NCBI GenBank assembly: GCA_035482825.1
Contig: DATHQJ010000044.1
Location: 2,164 to 66,163 of the forward strand
Source: Candidatus Binatus sp.
GTDB taxonomy: Bacteria; Acidobacteriota; Terriglobia; Terriglobales; Acidobacteriaceae
Direction: 5' to 3'
Length of the DNA: 64,000 bases
The translations under genes and the position numbers were made by a program. Positions 1,906 to 36,588 of this stretch are shown piece after piece. Each line of letters begins with the position of its first letter. Positions within the stretch are counted from its first letter, which is position 1. The notes beneath the pieces are model-generated. The model was not told the DNA's origin, did no database searches, and saw nothing but the letters and a program-made list of their open reading frames with translations.

Positions 1906-2053
1906 TTCTCGAGCCGAACGCGGATCGCGGTTGAGAGTCACCCCGGCCGCGCTCACATTCGCATGCCAGGGACGTGGTATGCTTCGCGTGGCATTTTTAC
2001 GTAACCGTTTACGCAGCGCGTCCCGGTTGACGCGGAGACAAGAGGAGGCTGGG

Positions 2054-6823: not shown

Positions 6824-7930
6824 CTATTTGCCGGGGCCTTGCGCCTGCTGTTTGGCGGTGATGGAATCCACAATCTGCCGCTCCTTCGCGCCGTCCTCGG
6901 GACGATGAAGGCGGTAGTAGAGCGTTGCCAGTTCTACATGTGGCTCGAGCCAGTCCGGATCGTCTTTCACCAGCGATTCCAATTCCCGAGCGGCGGTCTC
7001 GTAATCGCCCGAAGTGCTTTTCAGCATAGCCGATTCATAGCGAGCCATCGAGTCTGAGGGGTTGAGGCGCAACGCACGATCCAGATAGCCCTTGGCCTCT
7101 TCGACGTCGCGGCGTTTGTAGAGGATAGCTCCGAGATATAGGTTGGCCTGAAAGTCGTCCGGGTTGGTCTTGAGTGCTTCGCGAAATGCCGACTCCGCAG
7201 CTTTGACATCACCGGTGTTATCGCGAGCGGTGCCGACCAGCGTGTAGAGGCCGAGAAGCCGCGGATTCAGCCGGAGCGCCTCTTCGAGATCCTTGCGTGC
7301 CTGTTCGTATTCATTCAATTGCAGCAGGTTTGTCCCGGCGATCATGTAGGCGTTCGCGTCGGAACCAGCCTTTGCGACTTTTTCCATGCGGGTGACGCCT
7401 TCACGCCGGCTGCCTTTGGTGTTGATCAGCGCCGATCCCAGTACATATTCAAAATCCATGTTCTGCAAGTTCTTGCTCTCCAGGGGTTCCAGCAGACTGA
7501 GGGCAGCGTCCGATTTCCCGGTCTTCACGTCGCAGTCCCCCAAGAGAATTACAACCCCGACTTTGTCCGGCTGCGCATCATGCAGAATCGCGAACTGCTG
7601 GCGGGCGTTTTCGAAGTCTCCTTTCTCGTGATAGGCAAAAGCAAGGTCGAACAGAACCCCGTTCTTGTCCTTCAAGGAAGTCAATGCGGAGCGATATAAG
7701 GTAATGGCCTCGTCGAACTGTCGAACATGCACCAGAGCCACGCCGAGGTTCACTTTGGCCTCGACCTCACTCGGTCGTAGCTCGAGCACCTTGCGGTAGT
7801 CCCGGATCGCCGCGGAGAAATCGCCGCGCTGCTGCTCGTCAATGGCCTGCTTGAGCAGTTGGTCTGGATTCGCTTCCTGAGCCGCAACGACGCCCGGAAA
7901 CAGTACAAGGAATAATAACGCCGCCCGCAT
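6824..7930 (-). CDS. Exported tetratricopeptide (TPR) repeat protein
   Basis: Signal peptide MRAALLFLVLFPGVVAAQ. Repeated 34-aa A..Y....L...P motifs run throughout. The ORF-track start at 7936 is TTG, so I chose the ATG at 7930 two codons in. Confidence 0.85.
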   Translation of the reverse strand: MRAALLFLVLFPGVVAAQEANPDQLLKQAIDEQQRGDFSAAIRDYRKVLELRPSEVEAKVNLGVALVHVRQFDEAITLYRSALTSLKDKNGVLFDLAFAYHEKGDFENARQQFAILHDAQPDKVGVVILLGDCDVKTGKSDAALSLLEPLESKNLQNMDFEYVLGSALINTKGSRREGVTRMEKVAKAGSDANAYMIAGTNLLQLNEYEQARKDLEEALRLNPRLLGLYTLVGTARDNTGDVKAAESAFREALKTNPDDFQANLYLGAILYKRRDVEEAKGYLDRALRLNPSDSMARYESAMLKSTSGDYETAARELESLVKDDPDWLEPHVELATLYYRLHRPEDGAKERQIVDSITAKQQAQGPGK

Positions 7931-8022
7931 ATGCAATTAGGATAGCGCAGGACTCGCGCGCGCAGTCAGATTTCCAGAAGCCGCACGACTATCCCCGCCG
8001 TACAATGTCAGGATCAGGAACG

Positions 8023-9204
8023 ATGTCTGTGAGGTGTGCCGTGAAAATCGTGGAAATCAAGTGGCTTACGCTTAGGTCTTCATTCGGTTTGCTGTGGGTT
8101 CTTGCGGCCGCCGCATTCGCACAAAGTGGAGGGCAGGCCCACGTCCCTCCAGTAACGGCGGCGCCTCCCACCACCGTGACTCGGCCGGATTCAATCCAAG
8201 ACAGCGGACTCTACTATTACTGGGCGAACATGTCGGCGCAGGGTCGCGCCGGTGGAGTACTTCTGGGCAAACTCGCCCTGGAGGGTGAACCGCTCCCCTG
8301 GGAGCCGATGCTGGTGAATGTAGACTGCAAGGGCGCTGTTGTGAATTCGACACAGGCCGACCTTCAAGGCCGTTTTGTAATTACCTTCGTAGACACGCAC
8401 GGCGTGGAGCGCACACCGGCGGACGCTCAGCGCCAGATGGAAACTCATTATGAGGGTTGCCTGGTGCGGGCTTCGCTGGCCGGGTTCCACTCCAGCGCCC
8501 TGACGATTACGGTGCGGAATCTGCGCGATGAGCCCGACCTCGGGACCATTACGCTCTCCCCGGATGCACGCGGGGGCGGCACCGAACTCAGCCTCACCAC
8601 CAAGGCCGCGCCACCGAATGCGATGAAAGCATTTGAAAAGGCGAGGGCGGAATACCTCGACGGAAACGCCAATGCCGCGCAGCGCAACCTCACGAAGGCG
8701 GTCCAACTCTATCCTGGCTTCGCCGAGGCCTGGGTGCAACTGGGCAAGCTGCAGGAGGCTTCGGCTCCGCAGAGTGCGCGAGACTCGTTTTCCAAGGCCT
8801 TGGCCGCCGATCCGCAATTCGTTCTGCCCTACGAACGGCTGGCCGCACTGGCGGCTCACGCGGAAAAATGGCAGGAGACGCTGGACAACACAAACCAGGC
8901 GCTGCAGCTTGATCCCGGCGGCACGCCGCAACTCTGGTACTACGATGCATTGGGAAACTTTCAGCTGGGCAAGACGGACGAGGCCAGCGTGAGCGCTTCG
9001 AAGTCGCTGACGCTCGATCCGCGCCATACGGTGCTTGGCACGGAACAGCTGTTGGCTGTAATCCTGGCGCGGAAGGCCGATTACGCGGGCGCTCTGCAGC
9101 ATCTCCAAAACTGCCTGAAATACCTGCCGGCCGGTCCGCAGGCGGACTTGGTCAAGCAGCAGATCGCTCAGGTTGAGCCGAAGGTGCGCCCCACCGCGAA
9201 GTGA
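8023..9204 (+). CDS. Exported protein with an N-terminal beta-sandwich (carboxypeptidase-regulatory-like) region and a C-terminal TPR domain
   Basis: Hydrophobic signal ..LRSSFGLLWVLAAAAFAQ. GRFVITFVD..AGFHSSALTITV resembles CarboxypepD_reg strands. The C-terminal half carries TPR repeats (AVQLYPGFAEAWVQLGKL..). The start could be 8005 or 8023; 8023 has an AGGA upstream. Confidence 0.75.
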   Translation: MSVRCAVKIVEIKWLTLRSSFGLLWVLAAAAFAQSGGQAHVPPVTAAPPTTVTRPDSIQDSGLYYYWANMSAQGRAGGVLLGKLALEGEPLPWEPMLVNVDCKGAVVNSTQADLQGRFVITFVDTHGVERTPADAQRQMETHYEGCLVRASLAGFHSSALTITVRNLRDEPDLGTITLSPDARGGGTELSLTTKAAPPNAMKAFEKARAEYLDGNANAAQRNLTKAVQLYPGFAEAWVQLGKLQEASAPQSARDSFSKALAADPQFVLPYERLAALAAHAEKWQETLDNTNQALQLDPGGTPQLWYYDALGNFQLGKTDEASVSASKSLTLDPRHTVLGTEQLLAVILARKADYAGALQHLQNCLKYLPAGPQADLVKQQIAQVEPKVRPTAK

Positions 9205-9213
9205 GCAGAGAAG

Positions 9214-10911
9214 TTACCGTGTCGGCTCAGTCACTTTCAGTACTTGGTCCGCCGAAACGTTTTGCAGAGTTTGAACAATTCCCGAGGGCCAGTGAATTTC
9301 GACCAGTTCGGCACGAATATCCGGGCCCAGGCCGAAATGGACCGGGCCATCGCTCGACGACGCGTACCCGACGCTGGTGGTCATGTGGTTGTATTGAGCG
9401 CCGCTCTTGCTGACAAGCTTGATGCGAGCGCCAATGCCGTCGCGGTTGCTCTTGGTTCCATGCAGAGCGATGTCGAGCCAGTGGCCGGACTTCTGGCTGC
9501 GGTTCATCCAGATTTCGGCGTCCTGGCCGAGGGCAGTTACCACCACGTCGACGCGGCCGTCGCCGTCGAGATCGCCGAAGGCGCAGCCCCGATGGCGGGC
9601 TGGCGGAGCCGATTTGAATCCCGCTTCCTCGGTCAACAGCGCCCATTTTCCGCTCAAGCCAGAATTGAGAACACCAGGATTTCGAAAAACGGCATTCGGT
9701 TCATCGACTGCCTGTCCATTCAACTTGATCGACTGGACGTGGCCACCGCTCACAAATAGATCCTTCCATCCATCGTTATCGAAGTCATATAATCCGGCGC
9801 CAAACCCCGACATCTTAAGGCTGGCCTCGCGCATGCCACTCTCGCTCGTGACTTCCCGGAAATTCCCTTTGCCCGTGTTCTGGAATAGCGGGAAAGACTG
9901 ATTGACCAGGGCAACAAACGCTATATCGGGATAGCCATCGTTATTGAAGTCGCGAAAATCCAGTCCCATGCCCGAGATGAAGCCGCCGTCTTCAGTGAGA
10001 GCGACACCGGCCTCGAAGGCGACTTCCTCGAACTTGTTGCCCATGTTATGGAACAGCGAATTGTAGAGCGCGTCGTTAGTGACGAATAAGTCCGGTCGGC
10101 CGTCGAGATCGTAATCGGCCATGCCAACGCCCATCCCTTTGCCGACGTGGCTGCGCAGTCCCCACTCTTTCGAAACCTCGCGAAAAGTGCCGTCACCCTG
10201 GTTCAGAAACAGCTGGTTGGGTTGGCCCTTGTAGAACTTCGGACTACAGTAGTCGGCAACGCCCCCGACCGCGCACAGCGGCTGGTCCGAATACGTCCAT
10301 TGCACGTAATTGACGACGAAGAGATCGAGCAGACCGTCGTTGTTAACGTCGACCCAGGCTGCCGTGATCGCCCAGTAAGCGCCAAACTCAGGATCAGGAT
10401 GATTCACGCTGGCGTCCAGTCCGGACTTTACAGTCACGTCGGTGAAGGTGCCATCGCCATTGTTGTGGTAAAGCGTGCTGTGGTGCAGGCCGGCGACAAA
10501 CAGGTCAGGATGGCCGTCGTTATCGTAGTCCGCTACCGCAACGCCCATGTCGTAGCCGGAGCCGGCCAGGCCCGCCGCGTCGGTCACGTCGGTGAATTTC
10601 CCGTTGCCGTCATTGCGGAAGAGGCGGTTGCGGTACTTGGGGGAGTCTTTTTTCAGGGTGGCGATGTTGGCGCCGTTGGTGAAGAAGATGTCCGGACGAC
10701 CGTCCCCGTTGTAGTCGAAGACGGCCACGCCGCCGGGCAGCGTCTCCGGCGCATTCTTGGCCGGGGTTGGGTCGTTCTCCAGACGGAAGGGGATGGCGGT
10801 GAGTTCGAAACGGATGGGGCTTGGGGTGGAAGCACCTTGGAGCAGAACAACCGTAGCCAGGCTCAATGCCGAAGCAGCAGTGATTCGTCGAGCCAGCCCG
10901 TGAAGAAGCAT
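9214..10911 (-). CDS. CRTAC1-family protein (FG-GAP/VCBS beta-propeller repeats plus C-terminal ASPIC/UnbV domain), paralog 1
   Basis: Repeated FDYNGDGRPDIF, DYDNDGHPDLF, DVNNDGLLDLF, DYDLDGRPDLF, DFNNDGYPDI, DFDNDGWKDLF, DLDGDGRVDVV motifs. UnbV-like end HWLDIALHGTKSNRDGIGARIKL. The start is moved to ATG 10911 because the 10959 start would include the terminator hairpin at 10941-10964. Confidence 0.88.
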   Translation of the reverse strand: MLLHGLARRITAASALSLATVVLLQGASTPSPIRFELTAIPFRLENDPTPAKNAPETLPGGVAVFDYNGDGRPDIFFTNGANIATLKKDSPKYRNRLFRNDGNGKFTDVTDAAGLAGSGYDMGVAVADYDNDGHPDLFVAGLHHSTLYHNNGDGTFTDVTVKSGLDASVNHPDPEFGAYWAITAAWVDVNNDGLLDLFVVNYVQWTYSDQPLCAVGGVADYCSPKFYKGQPNQLFLNQGDGTFREVSKEWGLRSHVGKGMGVGMADYDLDGRPDLFVTNDALYNSLFHNMGNKFEEVAFEAGVALTEDGGFISGMGLDFRDFNNDGYPDIAFVALVNQSFPLFQNTGKGNFREVTSESGMREASLKMSGFGAGLYDFDNDGWKDLFVSGGHVQSIKLNGQAVDEPNAVFRNPGVLNSGLSGKWALLTEEAGFKSAPPARHRGCAFGDLDGDGRVDVVVTALGQDAEIWMNRSQKSGHWLDIALHGTKSNRDGIGARIKLVSKSGAQYNHMTTSVGYASSSDGPVHFGLGPDIRAELVEIHWPSGIVQTLQNVSADQVLKVTEPTR

Positions 10912-10930
10912 TCGCGTTCCTAAAACACTT

Positions 10931-10964
10931 CCACAAAAATAAGGGGTGGCTTGCGCCACCCCTT
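10931..10964 (-). terminator. Rho-independent terminator downstream of the TBDR-like gene
   Basis: Perfect 10-bp GC-rich stem AAGGGGTGGC/GCCACCCCTT (10941-10950 / 10955-10964) with a 4-nt loop. On the minus strand it is followed by ATTTTTGTGG. It lies 27 nt after the stop codon at 10992-10994. Confidence 0.8.
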
Positions 10965-10991
10965 GGATGATTCTACCTCACGAACTTCAGC

Positions 10992-13900
10992 CTAGAAGTA
11001 CCACTTCACGGCAAAGTTCAGGATACGGGCGCCCACCTTGAATGCCGGAACGCCTGTGGTGGTGGCATTCGTGTTCGTCGGCGCGATGCCCGTAACCTGC
11101 GGATTGCAAAACCCATTAACGACCGGGGAACCCAAGGCAGCGCACTCGTTGCCGTTGCTTCCGCTGGCAGACCCACTGATCGGCACGGTGTAGTTGTGCG
11201 CAAAACTGATCGACTCGTCGGAGGTGTTCGCTAATCCGAACTGACGCAACGGGTGATTCAGGAAGTTGACGGCCGATATGCGGAACTGCAGTTTCTGCCG
11301 TTCGGTGATCTGGAAATTCTTGAACAGGGCCAGATCGCTGTCAAAGTAGGCCGGACCCCTCATATAGGGCCATTCCTCGACACCTTGTTGTCCGTAAGCC
11401 GGCATACCGAAGCAGTTCGGGTTGAAATACGCACCTGAGGCATGTTGTCTGGGGTTGCAGACCAACGTGGGCAGGAGGTTGTTATAGGAGCTCGAGCCAA
11501 ACCATGTGGACGTGCTCACATTGGCCGAATGCAAACCATTTGCCATCACGATTGTGTTGTCGGGAAGATCCGGCGCCTGATTGGTCGGATAGCTCACGCC
11601 CGGATATTGGGCATTCAGGGTGAGAGCGTTGGCTTGCAGGTTCGCACCACTTTGGAACGTGGTGTAGCCCGAGAACTGCCATCCATTCACCGTTCCCCCC
11701 AGAATCGGGTTGCCGTGAACGAACTTGGGCATGTTCCACACATAGGACAGGTTCAGGATGTGGGTGTGGTCGTAGGCCAGCGGACCATAGTCATTGTGGA
11801 TGCTGAAGGGGTCACCTCCGACACCATTGCCCGGTCCGTTGTTGGTCTGTCCGTCCAGGATGCCCAGAACCTTGCCGAAGGTGTAATTCGCCAGGAAGGT
11901 AACCGGGCCGGACTGTTTCTGCCAGGTCACTTGCAGCGAATTATAGTTCGCATAGCTGCCGTGAAACAGCACGTCAACGTTCGAGTAGTTAAGCAGGGGC
12001 CGGTAATCGTTGGGTTGGAAATTCTGCGTATACGCGCCGGCGGGGGCGCTCGCGCAACCAACCCACTGACTATTGAAGGGAGTAGAAGACATACAGGCTG
12101 GTGCGTTCGGAGACACATTTATCCCGGTGACGTGGTCGGGAAGGAAAAAACTGCCAGGCAAGATGTTATTCACGTTCCCTAGATTGGTGCCAGATCCGTC
12201 GATCCATTCATTTTGACTCTTATTGGCCACGTACGATACTTCCAGGACCGAACGCCACGGAAGGGCCTCAGAGATCGTCACGTTCCAGTTCATGGTCAAC
12301 GGGGTCTTATTGTCTCCCTGGAGAATGGCATCGACGCTTGATCCATTCTGAAAGACGCCGGGGGGAGGTGTAAAGGCTGCGGTCCCACTGTTAATCTGCC
12401 CGTACCCGGTGCTGGTGCCGGTGCCCGTATTAAATACGAACGAACCCTGAGGCCCGCCGGACGCCTCGCCTCCCTGGTTTTGGGAGACTTGGTAGTGGAA
12501 TATGGCGAAGCCGCTACGCAGCACCGTCTTTCCGTTTCCGAAGACGTCATAGGCCAAGCCGACGCGCGGTTCGTAGTAGAACAGCGGAGATACGAAGCCG
12601 GACAGCGGTATCTTGCTGTCGATGGCATGCCACAACAGGCCAGTGTTGGGGCACGTCGTCACTCCGGTTGAATCTACGGGGCACGCTCCGCCGTTGGGCG
12701 CGAAAGCCGTCGCGGGGCCGCTGACATAGCTGCCTGGATCCCACACCTGATTTCCCTGCTTGGTGCCGTACCACTGGCCGACGTGATCGAAGCGCAATCC
12801 GTAATTCAACGTCAGTTGGCGATTCGCCTTGAACGAATCCTGGGCATAGAGAGACCACTGATGGAATTTGAAGTCGTTCACCGGGATCGAACTGGTCTGC
12901 CCGTAGCCCGAGGTGCGGCCGAGCTCGAAGTCGGCAATCACGTTCCCTGAGCTGTTGGGGCCCCAGCCGCCTACGTTGAAGGTGCCGTTGTCGCAAGGTC
13001 CAAGGCCGCCCGGAGAGCCATAGCCGCAGGTCGACTGAATATTCTCACTGGTATCCCAGTAGAAGCCGGCTTTCACGGTATGGTTGCCGATCACTTTTGT
13101 GAAGTTGTCGTAGAGCGCCGGATCGCGCTTGATAGCGCCATAACCGTTGTTACCCCCAAAGCCTCCGTCAAACGAGAACTCTGAGATGTTGGGGAGAGCT
13201 CCGCCCCAGGGACCCTCGAAGTTCGGGATCTGCTTGGTGGTATGGCCAAAGTATCCCTGGACCGTGACCCCAAACGTGGCACGACTGGCGGCATTGGGAT
13301 TGACGAGAGTGGCGGGGTTGATATAGCGCGCAAAGGTGAACACAAATTCGTTGGTGGTCGTGGGATTGAAGACGTGGGTCAGGTTCGACATGATCTCGTT
13401 CGAAGTAGTGGCCGCCGACACACTCGACGGATAGGGCAACGTCCACGCCGGAGTCCACCAGACACTGATGGGATGCTGATCGTTTTCGATTTGCCGGGTG
13501 TAGGAGACGGTCAGCTTGGTGTTGTCGCTGATGGCGTAATCCACCTTGCCCGTGGCTTCCCAGCGGTTCTGCGGAATGCTCTCGATTAATCCGTAGTTAC
13601 TCCAGCCGTTGGCCGGGGAGGGAGTTTCGTTGGCCTTCGGCATCCAGTTCAGAAGGCCGACGATGTTGGAGTCGAAATCGCTGGTTGGCATTGACGACCC
13701 GCCCCCTGGCAAATTGTAAACACCAGCGTAGGCTGCGGCGTACGCGCCAGACACACCTTTATAAAGCGCCGAAGGCTGTCCCGCGGTGATGCCGGGCTGG
13801 CCATTGATGGTGGCGTTGCTGAAGTCGCCCCCTCTTTGTTCGACCGTCGGCACGTTGAAGTTGAGCGGGCTCGCCGCCGGGTGCTGGTCCATGTATTCAT

Positions 13901-14894: not shown

Positions 14895-15194
14895 TGCCCC
14901 TCCCCGATTTTCGTGAAACCTTGCCCACAACCCCAGTGCCTTGACTCCAACTCCGTCCCCGGAGAACAGCTGGCACTTTTCAGAGGACCGTAAGCGATTA
15001 CATAGTGCTTTCCTACTATTCCACGAGACGACGCAACTTACCCCCTATGGATGTGCACTGTCAAGAGAAAAAACGATATTTCAAGGAAAGCGTGCATATT
15101 TGAACCAGCGAGGGTACACTGGCCGTCTGATCGGGCCAGAATCGTAGAAGAACCCCGCCCATCCGAACGGAAGGCGGGCTTGGTGAGGTGGTGT

Positions 15195-17426: not shown

Positions 17427-17464
17427 GCGAGGATTGAGGCGAGGATCGAAGCCAAGGATCGAAG
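17415..17464 (+). repeat. Four tandem copies of (C/G)(A/G)AGGAT(C/T)GA(A)G spaced 12-15 nt, straddling the VWA-1 stop codon
   Basis: AGGATCGAG 17415-17423, AGGATTGAG 17430-17438, AGGATCGAAG 17442-17451, AGGATCGAAG 17455-17464. The stop TAA is at 17424-17426. Confidence 0.7.
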
Positions 17465-17581
17465 CGAGAAGCCGGTCGGCCATTCGTGCCGCCCTCGATG
17501 CAAAACTGTTGACAATTGGCGAACCTACCTGGGGTAGAATCGTTCGGCTGAAACAAGTGGCCGGCAGCCCGGGATGTTCGC

Positions 17582-19414: not shown

Positions 19415-19509
19415 AGCTTGCGGCGCCAGCTATCGGGCATCGAGTCGGTGGGGCTAGGCTGCGACGCACGCATGGTACGATGATGCTCTGAAAGCAGATT
19501 TCAGCCCCG

Positions 19510-21814: not shown

Positions 21815-21991
21815 ACTGAAAGCCGAAAGAGCAGATAATCAGTCCCCCGCCACTGAAGCTTCAATCCCCTGATCTGGGCGCACGGAAGCGGTGTAGAATG
21901 GCGCGTACTTTTAAATCACAGAGGGCGTTCCGGCTGACTTGGTAAGCAGTAATTGAAGCCGGCAGTTCCTCCGCATCACAGGATTTGTTTT

Positions 21992-24900
21992 ATGGCTAAG
22001 ACAGGCATGGTTGCGGTCTTCACCTTCATGATGCTGCTCGTCCCGCGGGGCTCTGCTCAAACCGCGCCGGCACCGAACGGTGACGCACCGCCAGCGCAGA
22101 AGAGTGAGAGCCCATCGATTGTCACCAGCGCCGATGAAGTCACGCTTGACATGGTGGTCCACAACAAGAACAACGAAGCGGTGCTCGATCTCAAGCCGGG
22201 CGACATCGCGGTTACCGACAGCGGTTCGGCGGTAAAGCTTTCCGATCTTCGACTGGTGACCGGGCAGTCGGCGGCGCAGCACCAGATCACGCTGGTCTTC
22301 GGCCGCCTCGAACCCTCGGGCGCGAAAAACGCACGCGACATCGCCGCGAAGATCCTCAAGATGGTCCCGGCTAACCAGTTCTCGTTCTCGGTACTCAAGA
22401 TTGAGGGACGTCTCCGGCTGTATCAGGAATTCAGTTCGGACCAGGGCACAGTGAAGAAAGCGGTGGAGGCGGCAACCGAGATCCATGAGGGTAACAATAG
22501 TACAGAAGATGGCGCCGCAGTGCCGGAGAAGAACCTGATCGCAGCGGCCCAGACTGGAACAGATTCTTCTGGAACGCGTGTCAGTATGCAGGAACGCAAT
22601 TCGGCCCGCGTGATTCTGGCCGCGCTCGAAGAATCGCAAAAGATTGTGCAGGATCAGCACTGCCGGCCTTGGCTGGCGGGTCTGCTGGCCCTGGCGCGAA
22701 CTGAGCACAAGATCGCCGGCCGAAAAGTGGTGATCTTTTTCGAACAGTCGGCGCAGCTCGATTCCGACGCGAGAGACATGCTGCTGAACATTGCCGGTGA
22801 AGCGAACCGATCCGGCGTCAGCATTTATACCGTCGACACCAACGCAGTAGACGAACAAGCCGGTGAAGGCTTGTTGGCCGCCGTTGCCATCGGAGGCGTG
22901 ATGGCGACCAACCACATGAGTCCCTCTTCGACGACGAGTGGATCTGGTCCAGGAACGATAGGACTTCCCGCGCCTCCGCCGGGGTCGATCACCGCAGGGA
23001 ACGATTCGCTAACCCGGATTGAAACCGAGGGTCTGAGTGGCTACAAGAGTCCTCTGGCCGCGTTGGCGGAGAATACAGGTGGAGCTTATATCACCGCCTC
23101 GGACCGGCTGAAAAAGCCGCTCTTGCACATGATTGAAGACATGACCACGTACTACGAGGCTTCCTACGTTCCTCCGACCCGGGAATACGACGGGAAGTTT
23201 CGGCCGGTCGTCGTGAAGCCGTTGCGAAAACACCTGAAAATACACGCCAAGGCCGGTTATTTTGCGGTAGCGCCGGACTCCGGATTGGCGATTCGGCCCT
23301 TCGAAGCTCCCCTGCTGAAAATCCTGAGCGAATCTCAGCTGCCCACGGACCTGAAGTTCAGATCTTCCATCCTCCGGCTCGGAGATCTGCCGACCGGCAA
23401 CGAAAATGCTCTTGAGATCGAGGTTCCTTTAGACGCGCTGCAAACCCACGACGACCCCAATTCCAATCTCTATTCCCTTCACCTATCCATCGTGGCCCAG
23501 GTGAAGAATAGTGCCGGTGAAGTCGTCGAACATTTCAGTGAAGACATCCCGCGGCACGGTTCTCTGGACTCCAAGGGGACCGCACAATCGGAGCCGATCA
23601 GGTTGCAACGGCATTTCGCCGTCGACCCTGGGAAATATACTCTGGAGACGGCAGTCCTCGACCGCAACAACGAAAAAGCCGGAGCGCAACGTCAGGATTT
23701 CGAAATCTCCAACGACACGTCGGGCCCATCTCTCAGTGATGTGACCATGGTCCAGCGCGTGGATCCGCTGCCCTCGGAACTGGACTCCGCCGAACCCCTG
23801 CAGTACGGGAAAGGCAAGGTCGTGCCCAGCATATCCGGCCACGTCCCTCATGGCGCCAAAGAAATCTCTTTCTTTTTTGTGGTTCATCCTGATTCCGCTT
23901 CGGCAGAACAGCCCACCTTGGAGATGGAAGTTCTAAAGAGCCACGAGTCGATTGCTCAAATGCCATTGCATCTGATGAAGACGAGTGGGCCGGGTTCCAT
24001 TCCATACCTGGCGTCGATTCAGTCCACCTCTTTGCCCAGCGGAGACTATGAGGTCATTGAGAAACTTACTCAGTCCGGCAAAACCACCGAACGCGGGGTA
24101 GCGTTCAGAATTGACGGACCTGAGTTGGCGGCCGCGACCACGCCGGATGGCATAGCCCAGCCGCAAAGTGACGACGCAGCCCTGGCCGCGACTTCCGGCC
24201 CTCAGCCGCCAGAATCCGACGGACACAAGACCCGCCGACTCGTTATCACCACTCTGCCAACCGGCGCAGTACCTCCGCCCACCGCCGACCAACTGGAAGC
24301 AATCGTCGTCGGCGCCAGAAAACGCGCACTCGACTACAGCCAGGCTTTGCCCAATTTCGTTTGCGTCGAAGTCACCAGTCGGTCGGTGGACCTGGCAGGC
24401 AACGGCAACTGGAAACATCGGGACTCGATCGCGGAACTCCTGACCTATCACGACAAGCAGGAGAGCCGCAGCACGCTCGAAGTCAACGGCAAACGCAGCA
24501 GCCTCAAACGTGCGGAAATGAATTCCACCTGGCCCATGTCGATTGGAGAGTTTGGCGGCCTTCTGAATCTGGTCTTTGCGCCCACCTCAAAGACGGAGTT
24601 CGAGTGGAAGGAAGCCGGGACTCTGGGTGATGGATCGGGAGCTCTGCAGGTGCTTAGTTATCGCGTGGCTCACGAAAATGCGACGCTCAATCTGAACGCA
24701 GGAAACAGCGACACCGTCGGAGTTGGCTTTCATGGCCTGGTGTACATCGACGCCACAACCAGCGGCGTTCGGCGGATTACGGTGGAAGCAGATGGCTTGC
24801 CCCGCACCTTCTCTATGCATGCTGCGGCGATGTCGGTCGACTATGACTATGTCGCCATCTCTGGGCGCGACTACCTGTTGCCGGTGAGTTCGAGCGTGAG

Positions 24901-24997
24901 CCTGCAGAGACACCGCAAGCAGATCGAATTGAATGAGATCACGTTCCGGAATTACCGGCGCTTCGCGTCGAGAACGAAAATCAAGATGGTTCAGTGA
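21992..24997 (+). CDS. VWA domain-containing protein (VWFA-related acidobacterial family), paralog 3, with ~300-aa C-terminal extension
   Basis: ATG 21992 with signal peptide MAKTGMVAVFTFMMLLVPRGSAQ. Motifs VTLDMVVHNKNNEAVLDLKPGDIAVTDSG, VSIYTVDTNA, ENTGGAYI, YEASYVPPTREYDGKFRPVVVKP..KAGYFA. There is extra C-terminal sequence after about residue 700. Confidence 0.88.
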   Translation: MAKTGMVAVFTFMMLLVPRGSAQTAPAPNGDAPPAQKSESPSIVTSADEVTLDMVVHNKNNEAVLDLKPGDIAVTDSGSAVKLSDLRLVTGQSAAQHQITLVFGRLEPSGAKNARDIAAKILKMVPANQFSFSVLKIEGRLRLYQEFSSDQGTVKKAVEAATEIHEGNNSTEDGAAVPEKNLIAAAQTGTDSSGTRVSMQERNSARVILAALEESQKIVQDQHCRPWLAGLLALARTEHKIAGRKVVIFFEQSAQLDSDARDMLLNIAGEANRSGVSIYTVDTNAVDEQAGEGLLAAVAIGGVMATNHMSPSSTTSGSGPGTIGLPAPPPGSITAGNDSLTRIETEGLSGYKSPLAALAENTGGAYITASDRLKKPLLHMIEDMTTYYEASYVPPTREYDGKFRPVVVKPLRKHLKIHAKAGYFAVAPDSGLAIRPFEAPLLKILSESQLPTDLKFRSSILRLGDLPTGNENALEIEVPLDALQTHDDPNSNLYSLHLSIVAQVKNSAGEVVEHFSEDIPRHGSLDSKGTAQSEPIRLQRHFAVDPGKYTLETAVLDRNNEKAGAQRQDFEISNDTSGPSLSDVTMVQRVDPLPSELDSAEPLQYGKGKVVPSISGHVPHGAKEISFFFVVHPDSASAEQPTLEMEVLKSHESIAQMPLHLMKTSGPGSIPYLASIQSTSLPSGDYEVIEKLTQSGKTTERGVAFRIDGPELAAATTPDGIAQPQSDDAALAATSGPQPPESDGHKTRRLVITTLPTGAVPPPTADQLEAIVVGARKRALDYSQALPNFVCVEVTSRSVDLAGNGNWKHRDSIAELLTYHDKQESRSTLEVNGKRSSLKRAEMNSTWPMSIGEFGGLLNLVFAPTSKTEFEWKEAGTLGDGSGALQVLSYRVAHENATLNLNAGNSDTVGVGFHGLVYIDATTSGVRRITVEADGLPRTFSMHAAAMSVDYDYVAISGRDYLLPVSSSVSLQRHRKQIELNEITFRNYRRFASRTKIKMVQ

Positions 24998-26211
24998 ATG
25001 CTTTCGCCCGCATAAATACCAATCCGGTGACTGCGCACTTTCGGCGTCAGTTTCTTACCGTTGGTATTTGAAAACAGCACAACCGAATCCTGCAGTGGCA
25101 TGTGGCAATCGATGCAGTTGCGGGCGATCTGCTCGCCCATTTTGGCATACTGCCCGCATTGCCGAGGCTGGTGGCAGCTCAGACAGTGCGACGAAAATGC
25201 CGCCGGGTCCTCCTGCGGCGTGTGGACATCATGGCAAGTCGAACAGGTCAGAGTAGTCGTGGACTGGAAACATTTGCTTCTCCTCAACAGCTGCACTTGG
25301 TTTCCGTGTACGTCCACCGCCTCCTCCGGGTTGGTGTACGGAATATCGATGTAGTCATCGAGCACATCGCCGGGAAGAAACGACAGGGCGGGCTGGATTG
25401 GCGTCCCGTTACCGGAATGACACAAGCCACATATATCGATTTGCCTGTCCCGGCTCAGCAAAGCCGGGTTGGTGATCGCTTCTGACGTACCGGCAGGTAG
25501 CCCAGACTTCAGGTGACGGCGAGCGACATGCTCGCGGCCGGGGCCATGGCACTTCTCGCACGTGATGCCCAGCACCAGGCTGGTCTTGCGATATCGGTTG
25601 ACCGGTGGCGGGAGCCAGTCGAAATAACTGGCGTGACATTCGAGACAGCGCGGAATGATCACCTTGTCGAAATGGGGCGAGCCATCGGGATAACTCGGGC
25701 TGTTGACCCAACTGTCGGTTGCGGTCCAATAGGTCACCGGCAGTTGGAAAAGCTGCTCTCCTTTCCAGAACAGATAACTCTGCCCTTTCCGCGCGGAGCC
25801 CGCCACCACGTCGATGCGCTCGGTCCGCGAAAGTTTCTTGGTGGGGGAAAGCTCTTCCTCCGCGCTCTGAAAATAGCCGTCTCCGCTAACCGTCATCTTG
25901 AACGACAGATACGGATTTGAGGTCTTCAGAATATTGGAGTCTGGGGTGAAACTTCCTTTCATCGTACGCTGGCTGGGCCAACTGGTTGCGAGATGATGCG
26001 CCGTCTGAATGAATGTCTTGGCCTTCTCCTGATGACAGGAACCACACACGGAATCTCCAACGTAATCCACGCGGGCAGGCGGCTTCTTCTCCTCCGCGGA
26101 AAGAGAAGCCGGCATCAGCACAAGAAACAAAGCCAGGAAACAACCGGACGTGCTTCGATTCAAAGAAAGCGAATTCCCCCACACTCGTGCCAGCTCTCTT
26201 TTGCGAGTCAC
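24991..26211 (-). CDS. Heptaheme c-type cytochrome, paralog B
   Basis: Seven CXXCH motifs: CGSCH, CLECH, CEKCH, CGLCH, CSTCH, CLSCH, CIDCH. Signal peptide ..GCFLALFLVLMPASLSAEE. The start is GTG 26211, or alternatively TTG 26163. Confidence 0.88.
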   Translation of the reverse strand: MTRKRELARVWGNSLSLNRSTSGCFLALFLVLMPASLSAEEKKPPARVDYVGDSVCGSCHQEKAKTFIQTAHHLATSWPSQRTMKGSFTPDSNILKTSNPYLSFKMTVSGDGYFQSAEEELSPTKKLSRTERIDVVAGSARKGQSYLFWKGEQLFQLPVTYWTATDSWVNSPSYPDGSPHFDKVIIPRCLECHASYFDWLPPPVNRYRKTSLVLGITCEKCHGPGREHVARRHLKSGLPAGTSEAITNPALLSRDRQIDICGLCHSGNGTPIQPALSFLPGDVLDDYIDIPYTNPEEAVDVHGNQVQLLRRSKCFQSTTTLTCSTCHDVHTPQEDPAAFSSHCLSCHQPRQCGQYAKMGEQIARNCIDCHMPLQDSVVLFSNTNGKKLTPKVRSHRIGIYAGESIH

Positions 26212-26318
26212 CGTTTATCGTGAGATTCGCTTGCGGGTGGCCCGGTTGCTCAATTATGCTCAACTTCGAGGAAAGTCGTTATCTTGCGAGTTTCGCAGAG
26301 GCGATCATTGCCACATCA

Positions 26319-27923
26319 ATGCATCCGACGTTTGCGAAGGCAGTACTAGTTTTCGCGGCCATCCTGGCCGTAGTCCCCGGCATACATGCTTGCACCGGCC
26401 CCGCAGCACTCGAAGCGAAACTCCGCGTCCAGCCCGATGCCGACACTTATACCGAACTCGGGAATTGGTTCGGCGACCACAAGCAATACGACTGTGCCCT
26501 CGAGGCGTTTCAGAACGCTCTCAAGTTAGAACCAGGGTCGGCCAAGCTTTACTACCTGGTTGGCCTTACCCTTTACGCTTCCGGGCACACGCAAGAAGCG
26601 ATCAAGCCGCTTGGGCAATCGATTTTTCTCATGCCTGAGGTGCTAAAGCCGCACCTGCTTCTGGCGTCCGCGCTCGATCAACTGCAGCGTCACCAGGAAG
26701 CCATCTCCGAATGGCAATCCGCGTTGCGTATCGATCATCTCTCGATCGAAGCGCTCGACGGCATCAGCAACTCCCTGATGGCCGTGGGAGACTACCCCTC
26801 CGCGATCGAGGCTTTGCGCGACGCCCCGCGCAGCGAGACCCTGACCCTCGATCTAGCCCTGGCTTATGGCAAATCGAATATGCTCGACAAGTCTTCCGAG
26901 GTTCTCACCAAGGCTCTCCAGCGGAATCCAGCCTCGTTGCCGTTGACTGCTGCGTTGGTGACCGTCCTCGTGCAGCAAGTGCACTTCCAGGAGGCCGTCC
27001 ATCTCGCCGAAAAGTCGGCACGTCTTCATCCTGGGAATCTCGAAGCAGAACGGCTTTATCTGCACGTTCTCGTGCTCAATGGCGATTCCGCTCCCGCCCA
27101 GCCGTTAGCCCGCAAGCTGCTCGCCGCCCATCCTCATGATTTTGATTTCCTGTATCTCAGCGGCATCCTGGAGAATCAGTCCGGACAATATGCCGCTGGC
27201 CGGGGCTATTTGGAGAAGGCGGTCGCTCTCGATCCCAAACACTACAACGCGCGCTACAACCTAGGGGTCTCGCTGCTTGAACTCAAAGAATACACCGAGG
27301 CCCGCGAGCAATTGAGCAAGGCGTTAGAACTGGGTGGAACCGAACCGGAGATTCGCTTCAAATATGCGACGGCTCTGCGGAATCTGGGCGAGACCGAACT
27401 GGCGAAGCAACAACTCGAGCTTTACCAGAAACAATTGCAGGCCAACCAACGCCATGCGCTCGCCGCCAGCAAGACCGCGCAAGGCGACAAGGAATTCGCC
27501 ACCGGAGATGCGCAAAAAGCAGTGGCCGACTATCGCGAGGCCGTCGAGGCGAGTCCCGATGATCCTCGGCTCGCCTACAAGCTGGCGCTGGCGCTGGACC
27601 GCACCGGGGACGTCGAGTCCGAGCGCGCCGCGTTGGAGCAGGCGGTTAAGCTTGATCCTGGATTCGCTCTGGCGCAAGACCAACTTGGCTATCTGGCGTC
27701 GCGTGGCGGTGACTCGGCTTCCGCTGAAGAACACTTCCGTCTGGCAGTGCGCGCCGCGCCGGGCTACACCCAGGCCTGGATCAGCCTGGCGGCGACTCTT
27801 GGGATGGAGTCCCGCTTCCCCGAGGCGCAGGAGGCTCTGGCCAGCGCCCTCAAACTTGAGCCCGCCAATGCCGAAGCTCTGCAACTCCGCAAGGATCTGA
27901 CCGCCGCACAAGGACAGCGCTGA
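26319..27923 (+). CDS. Exported TPR repeat protein
   Basis: MHPTFAKAVLVFAAILAVVPGIHAC signal, then ~12 TPR units (e.g. YTELGNWFGDHKQYDCALEAFQNALKLEPGSAKLYYLVG). ORF-track start 26013 overlaps the divergent cytochrome gene, so the start is placed at ATG 26319 (alternative ATG 26256). Confidence 0.82.
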   Translation: MHPTFAKAVLVFAAILAVVPGIHACTGPAALEAKLRVQPDADTYTELGNWFGDHKQYDCALEAFQNALKLEPGSAKLYYLVGLTLYASGHTQEAIKPLGQSIFLMPEVLKPHLLLASALDQLQRHQEAISEWQSALRIDHLSIEALDGISNSLMAVGDYPSAIEALRDAPRSETLTLDLALAYGKSNMLDKSSEVLTKALQRNPASLPLTAALVTVLVQQVHFQEAVHLAEKSARLHPGNLEAERLYLHVLVLNGDSAPAQPLARKLLAAHPHDFDFLYLSGILENQSGQYAAGRGYLEKAVALDPKHYNARYNLGVSLLELKEYTEAREQLSKALELGGTEPEIRFKYATALRNLGETELAKQQLELYQKQLQANQRHALAASKTAQGDKEFATGDAQKAVADYREAVEASPDDPRLAYKLALALDRTGDVESERAALEQAVKLDPGFALAQDQLGYLASRGGDSASAEEHFRLAVRAAPGYTQAWISLAATLGMESRFPEAQEALASALKLEPANAEALQLRKDLTAAQGQR

Positions 27924-27968
27924 AGAACTACAATCCAACCGACCGTATATAAGGATGAAGTCGCAAGC

Positions 27969-29747
27969 ATGAAGACAGACCCAAAACCCGGTCCCTGGAC
28001 TAGGCGCCGCTTGCTGCAAACACTGCCGGCGATCTTGGCGCCCGCGCTGGTGCCCGCGGAGCTTCGTGCCGTGGTTAGCCCGACGAATGCTGGCCCCCCG
28101 AAGCCCGCCCCGTTCTCCCGCTTCGTCGACGTCAGCGAGCCCGCGGGTCTTACCCAGACAATGTTCTACGGTGATTCAAGCCACAACACCTACATCATCG
28201 AGGTCAACGGCGCGGGATGCGCATTCTTTGATTACGACAACGATGGCTGGATGGACGCCTTCATCCTCGGAGGCCGCCGCCTCGAAGGCATTCCGCCCGG
28301 AGCCAGCAACCGTCTCTACCACAACAACCGCGACGGCACGTTCACCGATGTCACCGCGAAAGCTGGCCTGACCGATGCCGGCTGGGCCTGCGGCGTATGC
28401 GTCGGCGACTACAACAACGACGGCTTTGAAGACCTCTACCTTACCTACTACGGGCAGAACCGTCTCTACCGCAATAACGGCGACGGCACCTTCACCGACG
28501 TGACCGAAAAAGCCGGGCTGCATGACTCTCGTACTCGCTTTGGCTCGGGCTGCACCTTTGTCGATTACAACCGCGACGGCTTGCTCGATCTGTTCGTTTC
28601 CAACTACGTCGAGATCGATCTTGCCACCGCCCCCAAGCCATCGATGCAGGTGCCCAACTGTAATTTCGAGGGCGTGGCTACGAATTGCGGCCCGGGCGGC
28701 CTCGCCATGCCCTACCACTCTCTCTACCGCAATAACGGTGACGGCACGTTTACCGATGTTTCCAGGGAGTCGGGGGTCGCCGCGCTCCGCACTTCCTACG
28801 GCTTTACCGCGGTCGCCCTTGACGTCGACGAGGACGGCTGGCAAGACATCTTCGTGGCCTGCGATGCCACGCCCAGTCTTCTTCTGATGAACAATCACGA
28901 TGGCACGTTTCGCGAGGAGGGATTGTTGCGCGGCGTCGCTCTCGGAAGCTCTGGCGAACCCTTGGGCGGTATGGGAGTGGGAGTCGGCGACTTTGATCTC
29001 GATGGTCACATCGATCTGGTCAAGACTCACTTCGTCAACCAGGCCAACGGACTCTACCGCAACAACGGCAAGGGAGAATTCGACGATCTCACGTTCCGCG
29101 CCGGTCTGGGCGGCGAACGCCGCTTCAGTTGTTGGGGCACAGGATTGGTCGACCTCGACAACGACGGCCATCCTGACATCTTCATGGTTGCCGGAACGGT
29201 CGCCCCGGAACTGGAACGCGTTTATAACAAGTATCCAGCGCGGAATCCACGCCTGGTTTTCCGCAACCAGGGGAACGGAACTTTCGTTGAACTGGGCGAC
29301 GAGGCCGGTCCCGCCATCGCATCGCGCCACGTGAGCCGCGGGTGCGCCTTCGGCGACTTCGACAACGACGGCGACCTCGACATCCTCATCATGAACCGGA
29401 ATGAACCTCCCACGCTGCTGCGCAACGACGCTCCCACCGGCAATCATTGGATCAAGCTTCGCCTGGAAGGAACCAAGAGCAATCGCAGCGCGATCGGCGC
29501 CCGTGTGCTGGTGCGTTACAGCGGAAAAGTGCAGGCTCAATCCCTGACCAGCCAGTCGAGTTTTATCTCGGCGAACGATCCGCGCCTGCACTTTGGCCTG
29601 GGCGCCGCATCGAAAGCCAGCATTGAAATTCACTGGCCCGCCGGCACGACCGAAACCTTCGCCGATCTCCCCGCCGATCAACTCGTGACGATTCGCGAAG
29701 GCCAAGGCATCATCAAAGGACGCCCATTCAGCAAAGAAAAACTGTGA
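27969..29747 (+). CDS. CRTAC1-family protein (FG-GAP/VCBS repeats plus ASPIC/UnbV domain), paralog 2, Tat-type signal
   Basis: Twin-arginine leader WTRRRLLQTLPAILAPALVPAELRA. Repeats FDYDNDGWMDAF, DYNNDGFEDLY, DYNRDGLLDLF, DVDEDGWQDIF, DFDLDGHIDLV, DLDNDGHPDIF, DFDNDGDLDIL. UnbV-like end HWIKLRLEGTKSNRSAIGARVLV. Confidence 0.9.
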   Translation: MKTDPKPGPWTRRRLLQTLPAILAPALVPAELRAVVSPTNAGPPKPAPFSRFVDVSEPAGLTQTMFYGDSSHNTYIIEVNGAGCAFFDYDNDGWMDAFILGGRRLEGIPPGASNRLYHNNRDGTFTDVTAKAGLTDAGWACGVCVGDYNNDGFEDLYLTYYGQNRLYRNNGDGTFTDVTEKAGLHDSRTRFGSGCTFVDYNRDGLLDLFVSNYVEIDLATAPKPSMQVPNCNFEGVATNCGPGGLAMPYHSLYRNNGDGTFTDVSRESGVAALRTSYGFTAVALDVDEDGWQDIFVACDATPSLLLMNNHDGTFREEGLLRGVALGSSGEPLGGMGVGVGDFDLDGHIDLVKTHFVNQANGLYRNNGKGEFDDLTFRAGLGGERRFSCWGTGLVDLDNDGHPDIFMVAGTVAPELERVYNKYPARNPRLVFRNQGNGTFVELGDEAGPAIASRHVSRGCAFGDFDNDGDLDILIMNRNEPPTLLRNDAPTGNHWIKLRLEGTKSNRSAIGARVLVRYSGKVQAQSLTSQSSFISANDPRLHFGLGAASKASIEIHWPAGTTETFADLPADQLVTIREGQGIIKGRPFSKEKL

Positions 29748-36562: not shown

Positions 36563-36588
36563 CTCGAGCTCCTTGCAGTCTTTAGTGC

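Follow-up and report, generated by a model that had tools for sequence, protein, structure and literature searches.

A conserved Terriglobia locus joining a TonB-dependent transporter with heptaheme cytochromes, TPR proteins and CRTAC1-type propellers

Twelve genes encoding exported proteins

A stretch of 64 kb from contig DATHQJ010000044.1 of Candidatus Binatus sp., referred to here as the window, was analysed by listing its open reading frames (ORFs) and scanning their translations against Pfam and NCBIfam profiles. Positions 6824-29747 (~23 kb) hold a block of 12 consecutive genes whose products all begin, as judged by eye, with a signal-like segment, at the coordinates and with the export signals that an initial annotation of the same DNA had given. 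The profile scans agree with the composition proposed there, namely four tetratricopeptide repeat (TPR) proteins, two CRTAC1-type propellers, three acidobact_VWFA proteins (hereafter VWA-like) and two heptaheme cytochromes, alongside one TonB-dependent transporter (TBDT). The 12 genes form one conserved Terriglobia locus built on a module that is widespread in bacteria, and we consider below, tentatively, that this is an uptake locus resembling a polysaccharide utilization locus (PUL) and carrying a periplasmic redox module of cytochrome, TPR protein and propeller.

The cytochrome CYT1 (20705-21814, plus strand) overlaps by 26 nt with the exported TPR3 (19510-20730, plus strand; Pfam TPR, 8e-20). 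The second cytochrome, CYT2 (24991-26211, minus strand; probable start 26184), is divergent from TPR4 and CRT2. TPR4 (plus strand; ORF 26013-27923, probable start 26319; Pfam TPR, 9e-37) carries the signal MHPTFAKAVLVFAAILAVVPGIHA, has orthologs of 535-552 aa and lies directly 5' of CRT2 (27969-29747, plus strand; FG-GAP_3 1e-53, 180 bits; UnbV_ASPIC 1e-20, 74 bits), whose signal contains the twin-arginine motif WTRRRLLQ. The other propeller, CRT1 (9214-10911, minus strand; ORF extending to 10959), matches FG-GAP_3 at 9e-58 (193 bits) and UnbV_ASPIC at 6e-19 (68 bits), and its start was placed at 10911 because a terminator-like hairpin occupies 10941-10964 on the minus strand, between the transporter gene and CRT1. 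This hairpin has a 10-bp stem with seven GC pairs and a T-rich tail and alone stands out in the promoter and terminator scans, where counts were at chance level, so that its role as a terminator is no more than suggestive. The duplication of the cytochrome, TPR and CRTAC1 components, as well as the overlapping and divergent arrangements described in the initial annotation, are borne out. CYT1 and CYT2 share 21% identity over their full length (E 2e-6), CRT1 and CRT2 38%, and VWA1 and VWA3 24% over 780 aa; the duplications within the block are thus ancient paralogies rather than recent copies, and the window holds no paralog of any of the 12 genes outside the block. Two ancient versions of the module can be told apart, TPR3-CYT1 and CYT2 with TPR4-CRT2, and the extra propeller CRT1 stands beside the transporter.

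The TBDT gene (10992-14930, minus strand) encodes 1312 aa as an ORF and ~1300 aa from its probable start at Met13 (coordinate 14894). Its barrel matches OMP_b-brl_4 (PF25183) at 440.5 bits against a cut-off of 30 over residues 274-1236, and is preceded by an N-terminal CarboxypepD_reg domain (PF13620, 71.4 bits) and a weak Plug match (PF07715, residues 156-266) that is borderline at 23.3 bits against a cut-off of 23.9. The earlier description of a porin of this type and of ~1300 aa was correct, but not the epithet 'giant': orthologs at the matching position in the related loci L005 and L091 measure 1319-1342 aa, and the size is ordinary for CarboxypepD_reg-type TonB-dependent transporters.

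All three VWA-like proteins exceed the TIGR03436 cut-off of 81.25 bits: VWA1 (15051-17426, plus strand; probable start 15195) with 213.5 bits, VWA2 (17582-19414, plus strand) with 203 bits and the long paralog VWA3 (21953-24997, plus strand; probable start 21992) with 136 bits. None of them has a Pfam match, VWA included, the DxSxS motif of a metal ion-dependent adhesion site (MIDAS) is absent from all three, and no PDB sequence match was found for VWA1. VWA3 and CYT2 are convergent, and their stop-codon ends share 7 nt (24991-24997), leaving no space for an intervening terminator.

Two further TPR genes complete the block. TPR1 (6824-7936, minus strand) encodes an all-TPR protein of 370 aa (Pfam TPR_2/TPR_16, 1e-32) with the signal-like N-terminus MRAALLFLVLFPGVVAAQ, and its orthologs in the related loci L001 and L008 lie at the matching end of the cluster. 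The exported TPR2 (8005-9204, plus strand) has weak TPR repeats confined to its C-terminal half (Pfam TPR_2, 9e-9, residues 195-388 only) and no assignment for its N-terminal half; orthologs in the same two loci score 461-470 bits.

Among acidobacterial relatives, cytochromes and TPR proteins carry Sec-type signals without a lipobox, and an RR motif was found in 10 of 36 cytochrome-linked CRTAC1 genes, all of them acidobacterial, while the Bacteroidota cytochromes and CRTAC1 proteins have lipoprotein signals. The window cytochromes show no lipobox or other sign of surface export. For the window organism, the simplest reading of these signals would be a periplasmic module behind an outer-membrane transporter. 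Whether the TPR gene next after the transporter could play the part of SusD was considered; the idea was rejected, as the signal peptides of these TPR proteins are ordinary ones without lipoboxes. No Fur-box-like site was found within three mismatches, and no Rfam family reached its gathering score in the window, which gives no RNA clue to the transporter substrate.

The heptaheme cytochromes and their partners

Each cytochrome contains exactly seven CXXCH motifs, with neither CXXCK nor CX15CH, and both exceed the PF13435 (Cytochrome_C554) cut-off of 20.8 bits (CYT2 35.3, CYT1 30.8). Sequence searches gave only local matches to OcwA (6i5b) and cytochrome c554. In CYT2, hemes 1-4 align with the full set of four in c554 (1bvb) and hemes 5-7 match c7/c3-type models, so that a c554-like tetraheme part is followed by a triheme module. 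The AlphaFold2 model of CYT2 (predicted local distance difference test, pLDDT, 90; predicted template modelling score 0.87) shows a beta-rich domain inserted between hemes 1 and 2. Foldseek matched this model to OcwA 6i5b (E 1.9e-8, template modelling score 0.54), to 6qvm, the undecaheme S-layer cytochrome of Carboxydothermus ferrireducens (1.8e-6), and to MccA (1.3e-3), and the modelled beta-sheet insert between hemes 1 and 2 appears to be like that of OcwA and MccA.

At the level of characterised families, all NCBIfam matches were far below their cut-offs, both for CYT1 (NrfA, NrfB, NrfH and HmcA) and for CYT2 (DmsE, GSU2203 and the octaheme family). With the NrfA model TIGR03152, CYT1 reached 15.9 bits against a cut-off of 692 and CYT2 had no match at E 0.01; with TIGR03508 (DmsE/MtrA family) and NF041028, CYT2 reached 38.6 bits against 192 and 48.7 against 325, and CYT1 had no match at E 0.01. 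The profiles and the model together place CYT2 as a '4+3' heme member of the NrfA/c554 superfamily, and neither cytochrome falls into an enzyme family that has been characterised. The initial annotation had named a match to such a family, e.g. NrfA/HAO, as an outcome that would refute the system; the likeness of the cytochromes to c554, NrfA, OcwA and MccA is at the fold level only.

The CYT2 family conserves His37, His193, His267, His295, His360, Met336 and a lone Cys279; in the CYT1 family, Met stands for His37 and Arg for His267 (CYT2 numbering). These alignments suggest His/Cys and His/Met hemes, and they hint that Cys279 may be a heme axial ligand and that the CYT1-type may have one open heme with a distal Arg. 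In CYT1 the lone Cys is residue 267, and the Arg stands in the stretch 'VRFQP'. The lone Cys ('S.CF'), located between hemes 4 and 5, is invariant in both cytochrome families, and in the CYT1-type proteins of three Pyrinomonadaceae loci (L034, L038 and L046) the Cys is lost and a neighbouring His is found, 'NSRCF' being changed to 'NSRGH'.

Among the best 150 representatives of the CYT2 family at 50% identity, 41 are at least 550 aa long. The first 10 of these that were examined are all cytochrome-TPR fusions, in both domain orders, and 23 of the remaining 31 have TPR domains at E <=1e-5, which gives natural fusions in at least 33 of the top 150 representatives. Overlaps of 4 nt between TPR and CRTAC1 genes are frequent among the loci. 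Because of the fusions, the conserved TPR3/CYT1 overlap and these frequent TPR/CRT overlaps, we infer that the TPR protein is probably a fixed partner bridging cytochrome and propeller.

Both propeller proteins consist of FG-GAP_3 followed by UnbV_ASPIC and belong by this arrangement to the CRTAC1/ASPIC-UnbV family; the human CRTAC1 structure 9etn is matched by CRT2 (E 3e-22). Conservation in the CRTAC1 proteins is confined to the D..DG calcium loops. A cofactor site was looked for in them and discarded as a candidate, there being no conserved Cys or His cluster.

Conservation in Terriglobia and spread across phyla

The same gene set occurs in seven related Terriglobia genomes, partly shuffled and with differing flanks. 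Ten genes in the identical order (CRT1-TBDT, VWA-VWA-TPR-CYT1-VWA, CYT2, TPR-CRT) are found in L005/L006, from Candidatus Sulfotelmatobacter with a CYT1 75% identical to that of the window, and in L091, where CYT1 is 89% identical. The loci L005 and L091 stop short of the TPR1/TPR2 position, and 3' of the block a GerE response regulator replaces the GFO/IDH/MocA gene found in the window. In L008 the gene set is the same, but VWA3 and VWA1/TBDT have moved; L009, L010 and L015 have portions of the set. L001, which is without CRT1 and the transporter, has the order TPR1-TPR2-VWA-VWA-TPR3-CYT1, CYT2, TPR4-CRT2, followed by a rotamase-CRTAC1 fusion, an SCO1/CusF gene and VWA3. The 26-nt overlap of TPR3 and CYT1 is kept in L001 and L005. 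The closest named relatives of the cytochromes belong to Candidatus Sulfotelmatobacter and Terriglobales. Since the gene set is kept despite rearrangement and changed flanks, a functional linkage of the genes can be argued, and the borders of the block can be set at about 6824 and 29747, in agreement with the initial annotation.

In L001, the region after the CRT2 ortholog (15866-19437) encodes a rotamase (peptidyl-prolyl isomerase)-FG-GAP-UnbV fusion of 889 aa and an SCO1/SenC-CusF-like protein. The fusion recurs in the Latescibacterota locus L056, and the SCO1 gene does not. An MccA-like copper link was considered on account of the latter gene and rejected, since it is found near the L001 cluster only and neither in any other locus nor in the window.

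A scan of one genome per species with a 13-sequence alignment gave a relative of CYT2 in at least 563 genomes; 80 loci were kept and 78 of them analysed. Their phyla are Acidobacteriota, Verrucomicrobiota, Latescibacterota, Planctomycetota, Gemmatimonadota and Bacteroidota, and the family is also found in cultured isolates (Pedobacter aquatilis, Rubrolithibacter danxiaensis and Novipirellula sp.). CYT1 has 3234 relatives, and the CYT2 family comprises 5106 clusters at 50% identity. By unbiased clustering, the recurrent neighbours of the cytochrome are, in order of frequency, CRTAC1-like proteins, TPR proteins, TonB-dependent transporters, SusC and SusD. Neighbour counts were made with profiles built from the neighbour clusters and compared with the in-locus background as expectation, the loci not being phylogenetically independent. 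In 15 of 78 loci (19%, 3.5% expected, p 7e-8) the cytochrome has a CRTAC1 gene as its direct neighbour, and in 25 (32%, 10% expected, p 1e-7) one lies within three genes of it. TPR genes lie within three genes of it in 36% of the loci, compared with 21% expected (p 0.001).

Distinct operon-like runs on the same strand, with gaps of -14 to +170 nt, weigh more than these counts. The order TBDT-TPR-CRT-CYT is seen in four Terriglobia loci (L017, L020, L021 and L023), and TPR-CRT-CYT in an Opitutaceae genome of the Verrucomicrobiota (L016). In Pyrinomonadaceae (L034, L038, L046 and L050), one cytochrome gene converges on the run TBDT-TPR-CRT-TPR-CRT-CYT of the opposite strand, and in the Latescibacterota locus L056 the cytochrome gene adjoins CRT-CRT-TPR-CRT. 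Five loci of Chitinophagaceae and Sphingobacteriales (L059, L073, L074, L080 and L082) show SusC-SusD-CYT-CRT, in some cases with Laminin_G_3 after SusD, or SusC-SusD-CRT-CYT. A core of cytochrome and CRTAC1, with or without TPR and TBDT, is thus shared by Acidobacteriota, Verrucomicrobiota, Latescibacterota and Bacteroidota. Conservation outside this genome, which had been named earlier as a test of the system, is therefore found at two levels, as the full set in Terriglobia and as a smaller core in four phyla. The Pyrinomonadaceae loci L034, L038 and L046 have orthologs of both cytochrome types (39-42% and 48-50% identity), so that the two-cytochrome arrangement predates the split of Terriglobia and Blastocatellia. 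The acidobact_VWFA genes accompany the cytochromes only in close relatives, and the position of VWA3 varies even there: it follows CRT2 in L008, lies farther downstream in L001 and went undetected in L009 and L010. The VWA trio, presented at first as part of the system, is a lineage-specific addition outside the widespread core.

Some loci show features of their own. Near the TBDT-TPR-CRT-CYT operons of L017, L020 and L021, which are without long acidobact_VWFA genes, overlapping pairs of short VWA-like genes (377-402 aa, 17-nt overlap) lie ~6-8 kb 3' of the cytochrome. Nine Planctomycetota loci (L054, L057, L063, L064, L067, L069, L071, L072 and L077) encode cytochromes extended at the N-terminus by ~100 aa ahead of heme 1, as a tandem pair in L054 (1255-4025), and loci with this extended form have no CRTAC1 gene within 10 kb. 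In L075, an ORF at 17873-19453 encodes a lipoprotein-like protein of 526 aa with a weak CRTAC1-profile match and an N-terminal heme-binding motif CQSCH, possibly a monoheme-propeller fusion, located in the PUL region that also holds the heptaheme cytochrome.

The setting of these genes points to nutrient acquisition of a PUL-like kind, an option absent from the initial annotation. L073 is a canonical PUL, with an extracytoplasmic function sigma factor, FecR, SusC, SusD, Laminin_G_3, the cytochrome, CRTAC1 and two glycoamylase-family genes (PF10091), and all five Bacteroidota loci named above, with their cytochrome-CRTAC1 pair, are PULs under the Bacteroidota definition of an adjacent SusC/SusD pair with carbohydrate-active enzymes (CAZymes) and a regulator. 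This definition does not cover the block studied here, the window being without SusD. Where CRTAC1 is missing, the cytochrome is found beside genes for carboxylesterase, heparinase-II-like, DUF4838, GtaA-like and tricorn-type protease proteins; neighbours of GH20- and GH3-like type were named from sequence only. In L019, L027 and L090 a tricorn-type S41 peptidase of ~1180-1200 aa is encoded directly upstream of the cytochrome paralog on the same strand, with a gap of 35 nt in L090; this is a recurrent second context, separate from CRTAC1.

Around the block itself, exported glycoside hydrolases of families GH3 (1931-4369, plus strand) and GH31 (4433-6814, plus strand), both recognised by Pfam and relevant as context only, precede TPR1, which the second of them abuts; in L001 the equivalent place is taken by a GH39-like gene and a LacI regulator. 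The remaining genes of the window serve sugar and amino-acid metabolism (GH3, GH31, GH51-like, GH63-like, debranching enzyme, FGGY kinase and permeases). No respiratory or heme-maturation gene was found in the 64 kb, and the initial annotation was right that quinol dehydrogenase, ccm genes and a terminal reductase are missing from it. On the other side, outside the conserved block, lie a GFO/IDH/MocA oxidoreductase (from 29833, probable start 29893, plus strand; RR motif SRRKFLG) and a xylose-isomerase-like TIM barrel (31484-32347, plus strand; RR motif SRREFLK), both assigned by Pfam. Tat-exported pairs of this kind are typical of periplasmic 3-keto-glycoside pathways. GFO/IDH/MocA genes are adjacent to the cytochrome in 6.4% of the 78 loci against 1.5% expected (p 0.007), and they adjoin cytochrome paralogs in four phyla (L041, L052, L055, L074 and L078). 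A link to the 3-keto-glycoside pathway was set aside and is kept as a lead only, as the pair is not conserved in the nearest syntenic relatives. At 35177-37498 (minus strand), FAD_binding_4 and BBE domains, the fold of oligosaccharide oxidases, begin only at about residue 356; the ~350 codons that open the ORF, rich in Arg, Gly and Cys, have the look of non-coding read-through, and the true gene is probably one of ~420-430 aa with a cytoplasmic product.

A putative redox module in nutrient uptake

Considering these observations together, the reading that we prefer, with a probability of about 0.4, is that of a PUL-like uptake locus carrying a periplasmic redox module of cytochrome, TPR protein and propeller. 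The transporter would import a compound which, from the genomic context, may be derived from a biopolymer, and the propellers, exported by the Tat or Sec route, would bind this compound or a partner protein. The TPR proteins would hold cytochrome and propeller together in a physical complex, and the cytochromes could perform or support a redox step on the substrate in the periplasm, in either direction, with carriers whose genes lie elsewhere linking them to the respiratory chain for electron exchange. The CYT1-type may hold the reactive heme and the CYT2-type may be the wire.

Several points weigh against this proposal. No substrate, partner enzyme, electron donor or electron acceptor was identified; the 12-gene block has no CAZyme, SusD or regulator of its own; and the closest relatives do not keep the GH3/GH31 and GFO/TIM genes at its flanks. 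TPR adjacency taken alone is not significant in the 78 loci (p 0.12). TBDT/SusC genes lie within three genes of the cytochrome in 23% of them against an in-locus background of 22%, again not significant, and since transporters are unenriched against a background that is contaminated by distal parts of the same clusters, the transporter link is argued from the operon-like runs and not from statistics. About 60% of the loci have no CRTAC1 gene within 10 kb of the cytochrome, and the cytochrome can therefore function without a propeller. The CYT1 model is poor (pLDDT 71) and gave no Foldseek match below E 1, for which reason the fold of CYT1 was placed by its alignment to CYT2. Heme ligation is deduced from conservation in alignments, and export signals and localisation from the look of the N-termini.

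A broader version of the uptake proposal, possible though doubtful, would make the module an unrecognised class of periplasmic redox machinery coupled to TonB-dependent import. It would serve, for example, to reduce or oxidise organics as they enter the periplasm, be they recalcitrant, bound to metal or humics, or otherwise redox-labile. In that case the CYT1-type would represent a new multiheme enzyme, catalytic and equipped with an open heme, a distal Arg and a heme ligated by His and Cys, and the CRTAC1 propellers would be the partner that presents the substrate. Such a class would amount to a redox arm of PUL biology in Bacteroidota, Acidobacteriota, Verrucomicrobiota and Latescibacterota.

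Electron transfer to the cell exterior or across the envelope, or the handling of metals, among the roles suggested in the initial annotation, would have the cytochromes act as OcwA-like reductases of Fe(III), Mn(IV) or humics or in reductive iron acquisition, with the large barrel being a conduit or an importer of metal. Cell-surface iron reductases, OcwA and the C. ferrireducens undecaheme, are indeed the best structural matches, the block provides 14 hemes, iron chelates are classical TBDT cargo, and relatives come from peat and soil Acidobacteriota, in which porin-cytochrome clusters are being reported. However, the barrel is a plug-type CarboxypepD_reg transporter and not an MtrB-like porin, the block has neither an MtrA-like periplasmic cytochrome nor an MtrC-type lipoprotein at the surface, and the score of 38.6 bits with the DmsE/MtrA-family model is far from 192. 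The cytochromes bear no lipobox or other surface-export sign, and the window offers neither a quinol dehydrogenase nor a Fur-box match. The family is moreover common inside SusCD PULs of Bacteroidota and occurs in the cultured Pedobacter, Rubrolithibacter and Novipirellula isolates, which we take to be aerobes, and the EET1 cluster known from peat is composed differently (porin, NHL protein and 13-heme cytochrome). We regard this role as unlikely and retain it because the nearest solved structures are surface iron reductases.

It is likewise improbable that the cytochromes are stand-alone oxidoreductases similar to NrfA or MccA, with nitrite, hydroxylamine, sulfite, polysulfide or peroxide as substrate and the TPR proteins as maturation or escort factors, the neighbours being co-regulated only. 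Much in the cytochromes themselves would suit an enzyme: the superfamily fold, in which the active site lies at heme 2 in c554, OcwA and MccA, at most five conserved distal His for seven hemes, the exchange of the invariant lone Cys for His in Pyrinomonadaceae and the Arg of the CYT1-type at the position of a CYT2-type His. The TPR proteins match the CcmH/CycH TPR model, and the ~60% of loci without a nearby CRTAC1 gene, for which this reading may hold, would also be in keeping. Yet all heme motifs are standard CXXCH, so that a special lyase is unnecessary, and permanent cytochrome-TPR fusions fit a structural partner better than a transient chaperone. Adjacency to CRTAC1 is far above background across phyla, no nitrogen- or sulfur-cycle genes lie nearby in any locus inspected, and the NrfA, NrfB, NrfH, HmcA and octaheme models stay far below their cut-offs.

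The initial annotation had also thought of redox-linked adhesion or matrix formation, in which TPR, VWA and calcium-propeller scaffolds assemble at the cell surface. Seven of the 12 proteins are TPR or VWA-like interaction scaffolds, and CRTAC1 is an extracellular matrix protein in animals, which was counted in favour, the 9etn match showing homology only. We consider this role very unlikely: the VWA-like proteins all lack the MIDAS, the TPR, CRTAC1 and cytochrome signals are of the Sec and Tat kinds typical of periplasmic proteins with no surface-sorting signal, and the VWA genes do not extend beyond close relatives, whereas the core goes along with uptake loci. A chance juxtaposition of families massively expanded in Acidobacteriota is hardly credible and is contradicted by synteny: TPR, ASPIC/UnbV, VWFA (TIGR03436, which we take to be such a paralog-expansion family) and TonB-dependent transporters are all known acidobacterial expansions, and transporters are unenriched against the in-locus background, but seven further genomes retain the gene set although it has been rearranged and its flanks differ, the overlap of TPR3 with CYT1 is conserved, natural fusions exist, and cytochrome-CRTAC1 adjacency (p ~1e-7) extends over four phyla.

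The heptaheme family is very large and is carried by abundant heterotrophs of soil, peat, freshwater and the sea, and no description of it was found in the searchable literature. Its location inside textbook nutrient-uptake loci is unexpected, as models of TonB-dependent and SusCD acquisition contain no electron-transfer component, and it ties a cytochrome to TPR adaptors as well as to bacterial proteins homologous to CRTAC1 of human cartilage. If redox chemistry is indeed performed on imported material, this would bear on the turnover of recalcitrant organic matter by Acidobacteriota and Bacteroidota, on the question why multiheme cytochromes are so numerous in soil Acidobacteriota while obvious respiratory partners are lacking, and on the role of bacterial CRTAC1/UnbV proteins, for which it would be a first function. 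Cultured carriers make the question directly testable.

Among known systems, some resemblances are limited to single components. The Bat operon likewise encodes several VWA and TPR envelope proteins, whose mechanism is undefined; compared by description only, its proteins are membrane-anchored, keep the MIDAS and occur with MoxR and DUF58, and it has no cytochromes, propellers or transporter. NrfG with NrfA and CcmI with apocytochrome c are similar in that a TPR protein is translationally coupled to a multiheme cytochrome of the NrfA superfamily, and the TPR proteins studied here match the CcmH/CycH TPR model PF23914 at 39-75 bits, with overlapping generic TPR matches. In contrast to those systems, no NrfEF/CcmF heme lyase lies nearby, the heme motifs are not unusual and stable fusions are common.

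The best fold matches for CYT2 are OcwA (the nonaheme surface reductase of Thermincola potens), the OmhA-like undecaheme cytochrome and MccA (an octaheme copper sulfite reductase). Members of this group share with it a c554-like tetraheme N-terminus and fewer conserved distal ligands than hemes, and CYT2 has the extra beta-sheet domain found only in OcwA and MccA. It differs by having seven hemes instead of 8, 9 or 11 and by an identity of 13-16% over the Foldseek alignment. The window cytochromes end in a triheme c7/c3-like module; for OcwA an NrfA-type three-helix bundle is described. MccA uses two copper-binding Cys, whereas the window cytochromes have seven CXXCH motifs, no CX15CH and one conserved lone Cys, and here the partners are TPR and CRTAC1 proteins.

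Porin-cytochrome conduits (MtrCAB, the porin-cytochrome complexes PCC and the peat clusters EET1-EET4) also place an outer-membrane barrel gene beside multiheme cytochromes, including those of peat and soil Acidobacteriota; the barrel of the present block is instead a plug-containing TBDT, and its 7-heme cytochromes are far below the MtrA/DmsE and MtrC models. A 2026 preprint on acidobacterial and verrucomicrobial peat clusters describes EET1 as porin, NHL protein and 13-heme cytochrome and EET2 as MtrC-DmsE-porin, and term searches of the preprint and its supplements did not find TPR, CRTAC1 or VWA proteins. An identity of the block with the EET1 'porin-scaffold-cytochrome' cluster was ruled out by this composition. 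A CRTAC1-family FG-GAP gene lies between c-type heme-protein genes in hydrazine-synthase-like clusters of non-anammox bacteria, according to a passage in PMC12758564 (2025). By analogy, that passage suggests that CRTAC1 propellers may pair repeatedly with periplasmic heme proteins. The clusters it describes differ by homologs of hydrazine synthase alpha and beta-gamma and by ABC-transporter binding proteins in place of a TBDT, and the passage mentions no TPR protein.

A system of cytochrome, TPR protein and CRTAC1 propeller, with or without TBDT, had no description in the searchable literature, most subscription journals being outside it, and searches on multiheme cytochromes together with PULs likewise returned none; to our knowledge, PULs do not contain multiheme cytochromes. 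PULs nevertheless offer the closest parallel in overall organisation, as they too have a TBDT with N-terminal CarboxypepD_reg followed by exported accessory proteins on the same strand, and as the Bacteroidota relatives place cytochrome and CRTAC1 inside textbook PULs and GH3 and GH31 flank the window block. The block departs from them in having no SusD, CAZyme or regulator and in that the acidobacterial gene after the transporter encodes a soluble TPR protein instead of a lipoprotein lid. The locus is accordingly filed as a TonB-dependent utilization locus with an unprecedented multiheme and propeller accessory module.

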